DNA of 64,000 nt from an uncultured bacterium (GTDB taxonomy: Bacteria; Patescibacteriota; Minisyncoccia; Phycocordibacterales; GWA1-40-21). The notes below the pieces were generated by a model. That model made no database searches. It saw only the letters and a program-made list of their open reading frames with translations, and was not told the origin of the DNA. A program made the position numbers and the translations under genes. This document shows positions 2,423 through 31,732 of this stretch, piece after piece. Location: positions 15,934 to 79,933 of the forward strand of contig CAIKXE010000002.1 in the NCBI GenBank assembly GCA_903831305.1, in the 5' to 3' direction. How positions within the stretch are numbered: the stretch's first letter is position 1; every line of letters starts with the position of its first letter.

Positions 2423-2511
2423 GGCGGAGACGGCTGGATTCGAACCAGCGGGGGCGATTAAACCCCACTTCTTTAGCAAAGAAGCACATTAGACCACTCT
2501 GACACGTCTCC
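2423..2511 (-). tRNA. tRNA-Ser (anticodon GCT), long variable arm
   Basis: Minus-strand sequence GGAGACG...CTTCT-TTGCTAA-AGAAG...GCTGG-TTCGAAT-CCAGC-CGTCTCC-G folds with perfect acceptor, anticodon and T arms and a long variable arm. The D-stem is weak, as is common for Ser tRNAs. Confidence 0.8.
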
Positions 2512-3905: not shown

Positions 3906-5030
3906 ATGATTAATATTCCGGATTTTATAAAAAGTATTTTTTCCAGTGATCAGGGTAAAAGTGTGCTCGGTATTGATATTGGTCCTTCTTCTATCAAGAT
4001 CGTTCAGCTGAAAAAGAGAAAGGGCCGAGCCATCCTTGAGACTTATGGTGAATTATCACTTGGTCCATATGCGGGGCTAGAAATCGGACGGTCCACTAAT
4101 CTGACCACCGAACAGCTTGCTCAGGCGGTAGTGGATGTTTTGCGTGAGTCTAATGCCACCACTAACCGTAGCGGTATTTCTATTCCGATGGGGTCAAGCT
4201 TGGTTTCCTTTATCAAATTACCCAAGGTAGACGAAAGCCAGTTGGCCCAGATGATTCCACTGGAGGCACGTAAATATATTCCAGTTCCTATTTCGGAAGT
4301 CAGTATTGATTATTTAGTTATTCCCAGAAATGACAGTATCGCTTCCGAATATCAAAACAGTGAAGAAAAACCTGAGGAGAAAACTATTGATGTCCTCTTG
4401 GTGGTTATTCACAATGACGCCATGGCACGTAATAAAGAGATCACCCGCATTGCTAAGCTGGAGACGACTTTTTCCGAAATTGAAATCTTTGGTTCTATGC
4501 GTTCTGTTTTAGATCAGGGTACAGCACCACAGATGATTATTGATTTTGGTTCTGGTTCTACTAAGATCTATATTGTGGAGCGGGGGATATTGCGGGTCTC
4601 GCATATGATCAGTCGGGGTTCACAGGATATTACTCTCGCTATTTCCAAATCACTCGGTATTAGTGTGGATGAAGCTGAGAAAATGAAACGCGAGAGAGGA
4701 CTACTAAAAAAAGAAGGTGAGCAGATGGATATTAATGAAATCACTTCTTTGACCTTGGATTATATTTTCTCTGAGGTTGGCCGGGTGTTACTGAATTATC
4801 AGAAGAAAAACGAGCGGAATATCAGTAAAGTGTTTTTGACCGGTGGTGGGGTCCTGCTCAAAGGCTTGAGAGAGAAGGCAGAAACTAGTTTTAATGTGCC
4901 AGTGGTGATGGCGGATCCTTTTTCCAAGGTGGAGTTTCCGGCTTTTTTGGATGCCGTTTTAAAACAAGCCGGGCCATCTTTTTCTGTGGCTATTGGTTTG
5001 GCTTTGAGACGCTTGCAAGATTCGGAGTAG
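3906..5030 (+). CDS. pilM: Type IV pilus assembly protein PilM (actin-like ATPase fold)
   Basis: Begins GIDIGPSSIKIVQLKK...; 374 aa; lies at the head of a pilM-pilN-pilO arrangement. Confidence 0.85.
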   Translation: MINIPDFIKSIFSSDQGKSVLGIDIGPSSIKIVQLKKRKGRAILETYGELSLGPYAGLEIGRSTNLTTEQLAQAVVDVLRESNATTNRSGISIPMGSSLVSFIKLPKVDESQLAQMIPLEARKYIPVPISEVSIDYLVIPRNDSIASEYQNSEEKPEEKTIDVLLVVIHNDAMARNKEITRIAKLETTFSEIEIFGSMRSVLDQGTAPQMIIDFGSGSTKIYIVERGILRVSHMISRGSQDITLAISKSLGISVDEAEKMKRERGLLKKEGEQMDINEITSLTLDYIFSEVGRVLLNYQKKNERNISKVFLTGGGVLLKGLREKAETSFNVPVVMADPFSKVEFPAFLDAVLKQAGPSFSVAIGLALRRLQDSE

Positions 5031-5077: not shown

Positions 5078-5716
5078 ATGGAAGTAAAAATGCAAACATC
5101 TTTTATACCGAAGAAACCGATTATCGAAAGCCGTTCGGCTGGTTCGAGTATCAGTTTATTCCTCCTACTCTCTATTATTGTTTTTATTGTAACTATGGCG
5201 GCCGCTTCTGGTGTTTGGCTGTGGCGGGAATCATTGATAAAACAAGTTGATAAGGATATTGAGGATCTGGCGGCGGCCAAAAAAACTTATGTTGACAGCA
5301 CGATTGATGATCTCATCAGATTAGATAATCGGATTGAAGTATCTAAAGTTTTATTACAGAATCACCTAGCCGTATCTCCCGTGTTCACTTTTTTAGAAAA
5401 TAATGTCTTAAAGTTTGTCAGATTAAAATCCATGAGGTTTTCTTATGCTGGTAGCGAGAAAATAAAGATTGATCTTTCAGGTACGGCTGGTAGCTATGGG
5501 GTATTGTCAAAACAGTCTGACGCCTTTGGTGATTTGAGATTAAAAAGTCTCATCTCTCAACCGGTCATATCAGATTTTAGCCCACTTGCTGACGGCGGAG
5601 TCTCCTTTAATTTTTCTGCTTCTATTTATCCTAAACTCGTGACATATGCTGATATCGGTGATACGGGGGATAGTTCCGCTGTGGATATTAATAATGCCTC
5701 TTCTACGACTCAATAA
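5078..5716 (+). CDS. pilN: PilN-like bitopic membrane protein
   Basis: Single N-terminal TM then a periplasmic domain, immediately after pilM. The true start may be the ATG at 5090 (MQTSF...). Confidence 0.6.
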   Translation: MEVKMQTSFIPKKPIIESRSAGSSISLFLLLSIIVFIVTMAAASGVWLWRESLIKQVDKDIEDLAAAKKTYVDSTIDDLIRLDNRIEVSKVLLQNHLAVSPVFTFLENNVLKFVRLKSMRFSYAGSEKIKIDLSGTAGSYGVLSKQSDAFGDLRLKSLISQPVISDFSPLADGGVSFNFSASIYPKLVTYADIGDTGDSSAVDINNASSTTQ

Positions 5717-19960: not shown

Positions 19961-20599
19961 ATGGACCCACTCGCTAAACAACCATTTGATCTAGTTTCGC
20001 TTTTAACTTCAATCATCAATAATTTTTTAATTAATATCTTTGGCCAGGACTGGGGGAAGTCTGTAGAAAACCTTTGGTCACTTTTGCCGGATTATGCGGT
20101 AGCGGTTATGCTCCGGGTCATAACTTTTTCTTTTGTGCTTTCGGTTATTTTGATTGTCATCGTTGTTTTGTTAATTAGAAGTATGATGGGTTACAGAAAG
20201 AAGATGAATGATACTTTGACCTTCCCCGGGGATAAGGCGGACCAGGAGGTAAAGCCAACTTCTCTTCGAACGCCACCACCAGTAATAAATGAAAAGTGGC
20301 AGAATGTGCTGGCCCATATCAATTCGGAAAACGCCAGTGATTGGAAGCTGGCCATTTTGGAATGTGACATTATGCTTGGTGACCTCCTGGAAAAGATGGG
20401 GTATATGCAGGAAAGCATAGGGGAGAAGCTAAAGGTGATTGAGCCTAGTGATTTTACTGGTATTGAATATGCTTGGGAGGCGCATAAAATCCGCAACGCC
20501 ATTGCTCATGATGGTTCAGACTTTATGATAAATGACCGGGAGGCTAAAAGAGTCATCGGCCTATATGAAGCCGTTTTTAGAGAGTTTGAATATATCTAG
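19961..20599 (+). CDS. Membrane-anchored protein with a C-terminal HEPN-like domain (R-x4-H motif)
   Basis: Two N-terminal TM segments. The C-terminus contains EAHKIRNAIAHDGS, fitting the HEPN Rx4-6H nuclease motif. Confidence 0.5.
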   Translation: MDPLAKQPFDLVSLLTSIINNFLINIFGQDWGKSVENLWSLLPDYAVAVMLRVITFSFVLSVILIVIVVLLIRSMMGYRKKMNDTLTFPGDKADQEVKPTSLRTPPPVINEKWQNVLAHINSENASDWKLAILECDIMLGDLLEKMGYMQESIGEKLKVIEPSDFTGIEYAWEAHKIRNAIAHDGSDFMINDREAKRVIGLYEAVFREFEYI

Positions 20600-20602
20600 T
20601 AG

Positions 20603-20673
20603 TCTTACTTTTGTGCCGATGGATGGAATTGAACCATCTTTTGAGGCTTATGAGTCCCCCGTTCTACCATTGA
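20603..20673 (-). tRNA. tRNA-Met (CAT) elongator-type (or tRNA-Ile2)
   Basis: Minus strand GCCGATG-TA-GTTC-AATGGTA-GAAC-G-GGGGA-CTCATAA-GCCTC-AAAA-GATGG-TTCAATT-CCATC-CATCGGC-A. Perfect acceptor, D and T arms with canonical GG and TTC loops; one mismatch at the base of the anticodon stem. Confidence 0.75.
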
Positions 20674-20812
20674 ACTACATCGGCGTTATTTAATTTTCCC
20701 TAGAATCTACCAACAACTACATCGGCGTTATTTAATTTTCCCTAGAATCTACCAACAACTACATAGGCATATTACTTTACCCTATGTCCAACACCAATAA
20801 CTACATCAACAT
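20664..20812. repeat. Tandem 42-bp repeat array (3.5 copies) of tRNA-Met 5'-fragment plus promoter-like sequence
   Basis: Period-42 units CTACATCGGCGTTATTTAATTTTCCCTAGAATCTACCAACAA, two identical and two degenerate. On the minus strand each unit reads TTGTTG-18nt-TAAATA-ACGCCGATGTAG, a -35/-10 pair followed by the first 12 nt of the tRNA and a degenerate D arm. Confidence 0.8.
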
Positions 20813-20894
20813 ATTATGTCTGCTTAATATAGCATTTTGAGGCAAAAAATCAAACCAGTATTGCTATTTGGCCAAAAAATGATACTATGTGATT

Positions 20895-20965
20895 AGCGGG
20901 GTAGAGTAACAGTAATTCGCGAGGCTCATAACCTTGAGATGTACGTGCGAATCGTACCCCCGCAA
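20895..20965 (+). tRNA. Initiator-like tRNA-fMet (CAT) with non-canonical D and T loops
   Basis: AGCGGGG-TA-GAGT-AACAGTA-ATTC-G-CGAGG-CTCATAA-CCTTG-AGAT-GTACG-TGCGAAT-CGTAC-CCCCGCA-A. It has a 1-72 mismatch and an A11-T24 pair like bacterial initiators. It lacks G19 in the D loop and TTC in the T loop. Confidence 0.55.
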
Positions 20966-21065
20966 CAATTAATTATTTTTGTGATCTAGTACTTGTTATT
21001 GGTGTATTTTATTGCTCAAATGTAGATTTTGTGTATAATAATGAGGATCTCATTTTTTTGAGATT

Positions 21066-21380
21066 CATCGCCACGCGGGCGTAGCTCAACGGTAGAGCAC
21101 TCCCCTGTAGACGTGCAGCTTTCCGCCGAGATGCGGATTGAAACTCTCTGGGATAACGGTGAAGGCTAAGTTCCATTTTGGAATATGCGAACACCGTGGG
21201 AACTCTTGTGAGATTTGGGGCCATCGGTCCCGAGTGAAACGAGGGAGCGCCGTAGAGACTAGATACCGGAGTACCCTAACTCACTGTGTGTGAAGGGTAA
21301 AGATATAGTCCATGCCACTATGAAAATAGTGAATTAGTGCACGGGAGAGGCCGTGGGGTCAGCACCCATCGCCCGCGCCA
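21066..21380 (+). tRNA. tRNA-Asp (GTC) interrupted by a group I intron; exons 21066-21099 and 21340-21380, CCA encoded
   Basis: 5' exon GCGGGCG-TA-GCTC-AACGGTA-GAGC-A-CTCCC-CTGT; 3' exon CAC-GGGAG-AGGCC-GTGGG-GTCAGCA-CCCAT-CGCCCGC-G-CCA. The spliced anticodon loop would be CTGTCAC, with G10, C38 and G73 as in tRNA-Asp. Confidence 0.75.
21100..21339 (+). ncRNA. Group I self-splicing intron (about 240 nt) in the tRNA-Asp anticodon loop
   Basis: Contains the conserved group I core elements R (GTAGAGACTAGA, 21253-21264) and S (AAAGATATAGTCC, 21297-21309), which pair as P7 (GACTA/TAGTC). The 5' exon ends in U and can pair CUGU with the intron GCAG at 21106-21109 including a U-G wobble (P1). The intron ends in G. 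There is a P9-like hairpin CCACTATGAAAATAGTG. Confidence 0.75.
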
Positions 21381-21383
21381 GTA

Positions 21384-21406
21384 AAAGCCCTGAATAAGGG
21401 CTTTTC
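21384..21406 (+). terminator. Hairpin with flanking A/T tracts directly after tRNA-Asp
   Basis: AAAAGCCCTGAATAAGGGCTTTT. Confidence 0.5.
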
Positions 21407-21409
21407 TGT

Positions 21410-21587
21410 TGCGCGGGCGAAGCAAGCAAATGATTTTGCTTGCGTTGGGTTGCTGACCGGCGGAGCCAGATTTTTTCAGTAGAAAAAATAGGTGAGCCGG
21501 TGTCCAACCCGAGCCGAGCGACGGCGAGGGGAGAGGTGCGGACAAGCACCCACATTGTTTTGTGCGAGGGAGAGTCCATCGCCCGCG
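21410..21587 (+). ncRNA. Structured ncRNA-like element (about 178 nt) closed by a tRNA-Asp acceptor-like stem; identity unknown
   Basis: The 5' end CGCGGGCGAAGC and the 3' end GGGAGAGTCCATCGCCCGCG copy the tRNA-Asp acceptor and anticodon-stem sequences but lack D and T arms. The interior folds into at least four hairpins. It is followed by the terminator at 21591-21625. Confidence 0.45.
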
Positions 21588-21590
21588 GTT

Positions 21591-31589: not shown

Positions 31590-31714
31590 ATCACAAACAA
31601 ACTTATTTGTTTGTGCCGGGGTTTGAACGGCGGAACGATGTTTTGATAGCAATTAAAACCGTGAGCCGGTGCCCAGTCTAAAATTTTTGACGCGAAATTT
31701 TAAGGCGAGGGCTA

Positions 31715-31732
31715 GTCCCGGTCTTGGCTCCC
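31715..31732 (+). repeat. Direct repeat of the tRNA-Thr(GGT) 3' end (GTCCCGGTCTTGGCTCCC), 126 bp downstream of the tRNA
   Basis: A 17/18 match to tRNA positions 60-76. A second T-arm-like fragment CCGGGGTTTGAAC lies at 31616-31628. Confidence 0.6.

Follow-up and report, generated by a model that had tools for sequence, protein, structure and literature searches.

Tandem partial copies of a tRNA gene beside the functional gene have been described in plastids, where pseudogene arrays of trnF(GAA) occupy the trnL-F spacer of Brassicaceae, Solanaceae, Asteraceae and other groups (PMC3786074 and references therein). In these arrays, between one and seven partial copies, each 32-73 bp long, are arranged in tandem immediately 5' of the functional gene. 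They had a single origin within a clade, followed by diversification of the copy number, and the copies do not fold as tRNAs (PMC3786074). In Solanaceae, the copies lie downstream of sigma70-type promoter motifs, and the anticodon domain of plastid trnF copies is best kept while acceptor-stem residues are usually missing (PMC3786074).

Judged by analogy, the plastid trnF arrays are the closest known counterpart of an array of tRNA fragments in the leader of a tRNA(CAU) gene that is described here for the window, i.e. the whole 64,000-nt stretch of DNA that was analysed. In both cases, partial tandem copies of variable number lie 5' of the gene, and one origin is indicated; the position after a promoter is shared with the arrays of Solanaceae. 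In contrast to the plastid arrays, the array described here is located on a bacterial chromosome, its best-kept parts are the 5' acceptor strand and nt 8-12, and its proximal head appears to be re-templated from the live gene. A literature search returned no description of a bacterial 5' leader array of tRNA fragments, which does not prove their absence.

A bacterial system that also repeats a terminal piece of a tRNA is the tyrT operon of E. coli. It contains 178-bp repeats with the 3'-terminal 19 nt of tRNA-Tyr, which are the source of rtT RNA. These repeats are transcribed together with the tRNA, encode a processed RNA and a small ORF, and presumably originated from unequal recombination. 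The tyrT operon thus shares with the present locus the setting in a bacterial tRNA operon and the tandem units repeating a terminal tRNA piece. Unlike the units of the 5' array, however, the tyrT units are located downstream, repeat the 3' end and are 178 bp long, which brings them closer to the 3' elements of this clade described below. Given the observed anatomy of the array, the homology of its units between lineages, its variation in copy number, its position relative to a conserved promoter and a signature of slippage, it is moderately probable that it is a variable-number tandem repeat (VNTR) of decayed tRNA(CAU) 5' pseudo-fragments in the leader, driven by slippage and essentially nothing more.

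Anatomy of the array and its promoter

On the minus strand, a promoter, a 15-nt leader start, units A, B and C and the tRNA(CAU) gene follow one another. The three 42-nt units are arranged head to tail at 20810-20685 (-) in front of the tRNA gene at 20684-20613 (-). This gene is intact and encodes a non-initiator tRNA with the anticodon CAT, as identified by ARAGORN, an Rfam tRNA score of 66.5 bits and near-identical orthologues in relatives. The tRNA is either an elongator Met or, if lysidinylated, an Ile2, and the gene ends 13 nt from the stop of a convergent ORF (19961-20599). Unit C (GCCGATGTAGTTGTTGGTAGATTCTAGGGAAAATTAAATAAC, 20685-20726, -) abuts the first base of the tRNA, has a perfectly matching head and is the unit missing in a two-copy strain. 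Unit B (20727-20768, -) is identical to unit C except for a G-to-T change at nt 4 (GCCTATG...), as seen in the sequence itself, with TRF and in the repeat search. Unit A (GTTGATGTAGTTATTGGTGTTGGACATAGGGTAAAGTAATAT, 20769-20810, -) is older and degenerate, and its subtype is that of the units in two other lineages (L092 and L093). The native leader start (AAGCAGACATAATAT, 20811-20825, -), delimited by leader alignment, is homologous to AAGCAGGTTATTTT, a sequence that relatives have immediately before the tRNA or the first unit.

TRF reported a period-42 array at 20673-20768 (2.3 copies, 98% matches, score 185), and the repeat search found two exact 42-nt copies as well as a three-member family with a spacing of 42 nt. 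The earlier note had counted 3.5 direct 42-bp repeats; three units were confirmed, and the additional half is the head of the tRNA itself, counted as a last partial copy. Its statement that each repeat contains the first 12 nt of the tRNA also held up. This sequence, GCCGATGTAGTT (-), occurs at 20684, 20726, 20768 and 20810, exactly 42 nt apart, with 0, 0, 1 and 2 mismatches, and the heads of units A, B and C match tRNA nt 1-12 at 10/12, 11/12 and 12/12 positions. Since only 3.6 matches with up to two mismatches are expected by chance in the whole 64-kb window on both strands, three extra heads in an exact 42-nt register are not a chance occurrence. An assembly artefact can be dismissed as well because the sequence is identical in four independent assemblies (L001, L002, L003 and L009).

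The units are a duplicated 5'-proximal tRNA segment, as had been suggested, and the degenerate D arm was found as described, with GTTGGTAGATTC versus CAATGGTAGAAC. Demonstrably tRNA-derived are only nt 1-12 and the D-loop GGTAGA, which is shifted by one base. The assumption that a unit represents a full decayed 5' half of the tRNA (nt 1-42) was rejected, as its global alignment was no better than those of shuffles: when unit nt 13 to the end was aligned to tRNA nt 13-45, for example, 323-1986 of 2000 shuffles scored at least as high as the real alignment. The shuffle test detected no significant homology between unit and tRNA beyond nt 24, the leader alignment showed no match between the unit tail and the native leader, and neither comparison traced the source of nt 25-42. 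The units are without anticodon, T arm and 3' strand, and their D stem is disrupted, so that no cloverleaf is possible; ARAGORN and Rfam call only the real tRNA and none of the units. Coding potential was considered and discarded, with no ORF of at least 60 aa overlapping the array and only ATG-TAG contained in the heads.

A conserved promoter of the sigma70 type, TTGATT-16-TGCTATATT (20826-20853, -), precedes the array and was identified by a promoter scan and by its conservation in relatives. It is composed of TTGATT at 20853-20848, a spacer of 16 nt and the extended -10 element TG-C-TATATT, with its hexamer at 20831-20826. Of the 16 tabulated loci of relatives, 13 have the motif TTGWTT-16/17-TGYTATATT in front of the orthologous tRNA, and they include loci with and without arrays. 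The exceptions are two loci without the motif (L019 and L054) and one contig that stops before the gene (L102). This site at 20853-20826 is the sole sigma70-like site adjoining the array on the minus strand that was reported by the scan, and two weaker minus-strand matches are located more than 150 nt further upstream.

In array-less loci, the distance from the end of the -10 element to the first base of the tRNA is 9-61 nt. The close relatives among them (L031, L015, L088, L012 and L018), with distances of 9-29 nt, have the GCCGATG-type tRNA, and the more distant L055 has 61 nt and no recognisable unit. With an array, the distance increases to 54-143 nt, and in close relatives the difference corresponds to whole units. 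Unit A begins 15 nt after TATATT, which is the exact position at which the tRNA starts in the array-less L015. With the conserved promoter preceding all three units, these belong to the leader, and transcription is predicted to start near 20819.

The earlier note had instead assigned a promoter, TTGTTG-18-TAAATA, to each repeat. This string is literally present only in units B and C, whereas unit A has TTATTG-20-TAATAT. Its interpretation as a promoter is not supported: it agrees with the consensus at 6 of 12 positions, has no T at the last -10 position and does not pass the promoter scan. Moreover, its -10 hexamer ends 2 nt before the first base of the tRNA, which would place initiation inside the tRNA, and in relatives the equivalent hexamers are either misspaced or at a distance of 0-2 nt. 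The abortive tRNA-like transcripts proposed on this basis are not supported either, as the units, with the conserved promoter upstream of unit A, would be transcribed as leader instead.

Copy number, relatives and descent of the units

Lineages with homologous units were collected by one genome scan with the neighbouring protein and by one search of metagenomes in which a head had to precede the tRNA. A strain from another study (L010) is 99.8% identical over about 1.6 kb and has two copies compared to three in the window, with exactly unit C missing. The copy number, whose comparison across strains had been proposed in the earlier note, therefore varies even at this level of identity, and it ranges from one to three in other lineages. 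Homologous units were found in seven further lineages, with one copy in L093, L096 and L101, two copies in L022, L092 and L098, and three copies in L099. Four other metagenome matches (L094, L095, L097 and L100) were coding repeats rather than tRNA loci and were discarded.

Assemblies of this species and its relatives (L013, L017 and L102-L104) and Logan contigs (L004, L005 and L011) often end within about 100 nt after the ORF of a 212-aa neighbouring protein or inside the repeat. These ends fit breaks of the assembly graph at near-identical tRNA genes and the array, and the locus is likely under-represented in metagenome-assembled genomes (MAGs). Logan contig ends inside the repeat were also considered as transcript ends, but they coincide exactly with k=31 branch points and are thus assembly breaks.

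Every proximal unit starts with GCCGATGTAGTT followed by GTTGGT, although the metagenome pattern required a head and a tRNA with eight head positions fixed, so that the conservation of these positions is partly due to ascertainment. The tRNA has CAATGGT at this place, and the distal unit A of the window has ATTGGT instead of GTTGGT. The shared start points to one ancestral pseudo-fragment. The rest of the unit differs between lineages and is nearly identical within one genome. No heads were found in the close relatives L012, L015, L018 and L019. The leaders of L012 and L018 keep stretches that resemble unit tails by eye, and these would point to secondary loss if they are homologous. A neighbour-joining tree of the 212-aa neighbouring protein, a single short protein of low resolution, interleaves array bearers with array-less lineages, and monophyly of the bearers was therefore not retained. 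Overall, the distribution among lineages fits a single origin followed by repeated loss. The traits of a tRNA pseudogene array were all found at this locus, namely head-to-tail tRNA homology, a position immediately 5' of the gene without a cloverleaf, and a copy number that varies after one origin.

According to the favoured reading, one pseudo-fragment would have arisen in the ancestor of a group of Paceibacteria. The 12-nt heads, that of the real tRNA among them, would then have undergone slipped-strand mispairing or unequal recombination with one another, through which the array grew and shrank. With the newest unit taking its head from the live gene, the proximal head would remain perfect and the copies within a genome nearly identical. 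In L022, the two unit bodies are identical at 29/29 positions, while the distal head is ACTTGTGTAGTT (ACTTG...) and only the proximal one agrees with the tRNA (GCCGATGTAGTT, GCCGA...). In the window, unit B has GCCTATG, and unit C and the tRNA have GCCGATG. These head patterns are the signature of slippage or unequal exchange between successive heads. Since templating from the tRNA explains the perfect proximal heads, no selection on the heads is needed. The whole array would be transcribed from the upstream promoter, and the leader including the array would presumably be removed by RNase P. The repeats would then be largely a tolerated by-product rather than a device, probably close to neutrality.

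Some findings speak against pure slippage. GTTGGT is invariant in the proximal units despite being unlike the tRNA, and thus it cannot be refreshed from it. In addition, the former D-loop has the form of an extended -10 element in the multi-copy subtype, and the same motif occurs independently in a fragment of a tRNA-Thr gene. The invariant GTTGGT and the recurrent motif are a hint of selection. Finally, the neighbouring protein is just 54-64% identical across the array-bearing lineages, a range over which persistence is long for neutral DNA, although the nearby leader and the promoter are conserved as well.

Differences in copy number also bear on the proposal that the repeats are footprints of repeated site-specific integration and excision at tRNA(CAU), which we regard as extremely unlikely. 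The attachment (att) repeats of phages and islands at tRNA genes normally comprise the 3' part, are two in number and flank the inserted element. The array shares with them the direct repeats of a partial tRNA beside an intact gene, and other att features are absent from it. It is the 5' end that is duplicated, the units abut without DNA between them, and alleles differ by exactly one unit, whereas excision by an integrase restores a single site and builds no arrays. Two repeats flanking an integrase-bearing element were not found at the array, and there is no integrase among the neighbouring ORFs. A scan for CCGATGTAGTTGTTGGT in 2.9 million viral contigs (IMG/VR) returned only unrelated coding matches and hence no viral attP. 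The proposal is disfavoured by the contiguous 5' fragments, the missing integrase, the whole-unit length differences and the lack of an IMG/VR contig with the unit. In its favour, tRNA loci are prone to rearrangement in these genomes, as a block of two tRNA(CAU) genes is inverted between close relatives, and many tRNAs have 13-44-nt direct repeats of their own 3' ends downstream.

The genomic neighbourhood is that of a chromosome. The array is surrounded by LigA, GatC and GatA, by a 212-aa protein that has no Pfam domain, and by hemerythrin and type IV pilus genes; nearly all of these are on the plus strand, and the GC content is 41%. Homologues of the 212-aa protein are found in MAGs of Paceibacteria/Parcubacteria, which indicates a CPR chromosome rather than a phage. 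The order 212-aa ORF, initiator-like tRNA(CAU), non-initiator tRNA(CAU) and tRNA-Asp(GUC) is widely conserved in relatives. In the window, the non-initiator tRNA is inverted and comes first, as it does in L015, L093, L096 and L098. The two tRNA(CAU) genes form a block with divergent promoters (20613-20966), whose orientation and order vary among close relatives (L102, L022, L015 and L012). In L102, the closest relative found (ORF 80% identical), the whole block has the opposite orientation, and the breakpoints are at most a few nt away from the tRNA 3' ends.

Possible roles of the units in transcription and maturation

The extended -10 motif within the units leads to an alternative explanation, in which the array is an exapted cassette of tandem promoters. 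The D-loop of the subtype of units B and C, TGGTAGAAC, would have mutated to the extended -10 element TGGTAGATT, for which a good -35 element is not needed. Transcription from each unit would then start about 12 nt before the following head or the tRNA, and the copy number would equal the number of promoters and hence set the tRNA dosage. As a full account of the array, this is possible but rather unlikely. The candidate element in the former D-loop of unit C (20704-20712, -) matches TGnTAnnnT and lies 19 nt before the first base of the tRNA, with a predicted transcription start near 20697. That of unit B (20746-20754, -) lies 19 nt before the head of unit C, with a predicted start near 20739.

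In the collected loci, TGnTAnnnT occurs within 60 nt upstream of 75 of 179 tRNAs, compared to a background of 0.084 per 60 nt, which is about five times lower. The motif mostly ends 6-31 nt from the first base of the tRNA and is further away, up to 50 nt, in 3/75 cases. The form TGnTAGATT appears to be the native promoter of the tRNA-Ser of the window (TGCTAGATT, d=10), a tRNA-Asp (L037) and a tRNA-Met (L063). TGGTAGATT itself is present in units B and C and in the units of L098 (d=18-19), and the units of L022 and L099 have TGGTAAGTT, in which T-12, A-11 and T-7 are retained. In L089, an independent 39-nt fragment of tRNA-Thr(GGT) contains TGGTAGATT derived from TGGTAGAGC (d=14), with scrambled flanks. 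The D-loop TGGTAGA(A/G)C is one or two changes away from TGGTAGATT, a form that was thus reached independently at tRNA(CAU) and tRNA-Thr.

However, the critical A-11 is lost (TGGTG...) in unit A and in the units of L092, L093, L096 and L101, and yet these units persist; those of L092 were even duplicated despite this loss. The pattern of TGn with T-12, A-11 and T-7 is accordingly matched by units B and C, L098, L022, L099 and the Thr unit of L089, but not by unit A and these four lineages. A chance origin is also easy, as the native D-loop is only one or two AT-biased changes from the motif in an AT-rich genome. Furthermore, the canonical upstream promoter stays intact, being carried by the 13 of 16 tabulated loci mentioned above, and promoters 42 nt apart would occlude one another. 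The tandem promoters of the earlier note thus fall for TTGTTG-18-TAAATA and survive only in a changed form, as the promoter-like TGGTAGATT of units B and C, 19 nt before the next start. Internal promoters in the B/C subtype are plausible from this motif, and the two young units may have gained promoter activity. A broader idea, which we consider unlikely, is that tRNA pseudo-fragments serve as a source of new promoters and that their multiplication by slippage would create a strain-variable cassette with which the dosage of an essential tRNA is tuned by copy number in a reduced genome.

If TGGTAGATT is active in units B and C, and only then, the array would resemble the rrn P1/P2 promoters, which are tandem promoters of stable RNA about 120 bp apart, in having serial promoters before a stable-RNA gene. 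Unlike the array, the rrn promoters are not repeats of the 5' end of the gene itself, and their number is fixed between strains.

The conservation of the first 18 nt could alternatively reflect a function of the leader as RNA. The repeated pseudo-5' strands would compete for the 3' acceptor strand and thereby delay or tune maturation by RNase P, or the excised leader would act as a decoy or sponge that captures a factor recognising the tRNA 5' end. We consider this quite improbable, although each head is complementary to the 3' acceptor strand and, in the minimum-free-energy fold of leader and tRNA, the 3' strand pairs with the head of unit A instead of the true 5' end. The initial 18 nt of a unit, invariant in the proximal units, can also form a 7-bp hairpin (GCCGAUG/UGUUGGU), which is kept by several substitutions in distal heads. 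With -5.2 kcal/mol and a z of about -0.5, this hairpin is weak; it was predicted for neither unit A nor unit B and cannot be formed by the Thr unit of L089. As it does not exceed shuffles, it was rejected as the cause of the invariant 18 nt. The leader together with the tRNA is not unusually stable (z = -1.28), the units have z values of -0.9 to +1.2, and a structured cis-regulatory leader was therefore not accepted. The independent sequences are too few for a covariation test, and templating from the tRNA already explains the conservation of the heads. A search of the array and the tRNA against Rfam returned only the tRNA itself and a sub-threshold antisense match to Plastid-ycf2 on the tRNA. 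Slippage of decayed pseudo-fragments is the preferred reading, with promoter activity as a possible later addition in units B and C.

Other tRNA-linked features and significance of the array

Further tRNA genes in the window and the clade have unusual surroundings. The tRNA-Asp(GUC) gene of the window (21075-21380, +), which was missed by ARAGORN, has exons at 21075-21108 and 21340-21377 (plus CCA) and a 231-nt group I intron at 21109-21339, inserted after the second anticodon base (CTGT|...G|CAC). The Rfam score for Intron_gpI is 46.5 bits, just below the gathering score of 50. Otherwise identical genes without the intron are found in L012 and L101, and intron-bearing genes in L019, L035, L093 and L098. 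The initiator-like tRNA(CAU) (20895-20966, +) has an extended -10 element, TGATACTAT (20880-20888; site 20861-20895), that ends 6 nt before its first base, and the same distance of 6-7 nt is found in relatives (L012, L018, L019, L092 and L101). This suggests that its transcript starts at or next to the mature 5' end and is leaderless, in which case RNase P would not be needed.

Repeats upstream of other tRNA genes were also observed. In L085 (3268-3467), two 100-bp tandem units upstream of an initiator tRNA contain an exact copy of nt 1-24, after which come an anticodon arm that has diverged and a promoter-like, AT-rich stretch. In L089 (about 5240-5325), the 39-nt fragment upstream of tRNA-Thr(GGT) is accompanied by an older degenerate one, and in L057 a 13-nt copy of the head precedes tRNA-Thr(CGT) (4186-4260, -) by about 119 nt. 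Directly upstream of the tRNA-Ser of the window (2423-2511, -), about three copies of GAATAAATCTA (+) form an 11-bp tandem repeat (2517-2553), which copies TAGATTTATT including the apparent extended -10 element TGCTAGATT.

An unannotated structured element of about 130-210 nt is located directly downstream of tRNA genes, namely Thr-GGT, Asp and both tRNA-CAU genes. The window contains it at 21381-21588 (core 21444-21548) and 31590-31731 (core 31615-31717), and it is also present in L012, L019, L021, L022, L029, L030, L035, L042, L049, L060, L067, L071, L077, L088, L092, L093, L098, L099, L101 and L105. It starts with a terminator-like hairpin, which is followed by the reverse complement of the acceptor 3' strand and T arm of the host tRNA, split by a small conserved hairpin, and then by a conserved multi-helix core. 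It ends with an exact direct repeat of 13-44 nt of the host tRNA 3' end (12 nt in the tRNA-Asp copy of the window), and such a 3'-end repeat is present in 23 of 181 tRNAs. In the core, 90.6% of the cells are paired compared to 35-43% in slid controls, and none of 500 shuffles reaches this covariation. A covariance model gave 26 strong matches (E<1e-9) in 484 kb; in 19 of these, a tRNA called by ARAGORN precedes the match on the same strand at a distance of 22-83 nt. Of the other strong matches, five come after an intron-split tRNA-Asp, one (L098) comes after only a remnant of a tRNA 3' end, and one (L067) is next to a contig end. There are at least two other core types, and no Rfam match was found for the element. 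It is reminiscent of the tyrT/rtT repeats of E. coli and may be more novel than the 5' array.

The array itself shows that tRNA-pseudogene arrays, long used as a phylogenetic marker in plastids, also exist in bacteria, in this case in ultra-small CPR genomes, where the array occupies the leader of a tRNA that is presumably essential. As a 42-bp VNTR, it separates near-identical strains, and two short-read (Logan) contigs are broken at its position. Should the internal TGGTAGATT be active, the locus would represent the birth of a promoter from a gene's own sequence, with the dosage set by the copy number. If it is inactive, the locus would mean that RNase P substrates tolerate a self-mimicking leader of more than 100 nt.
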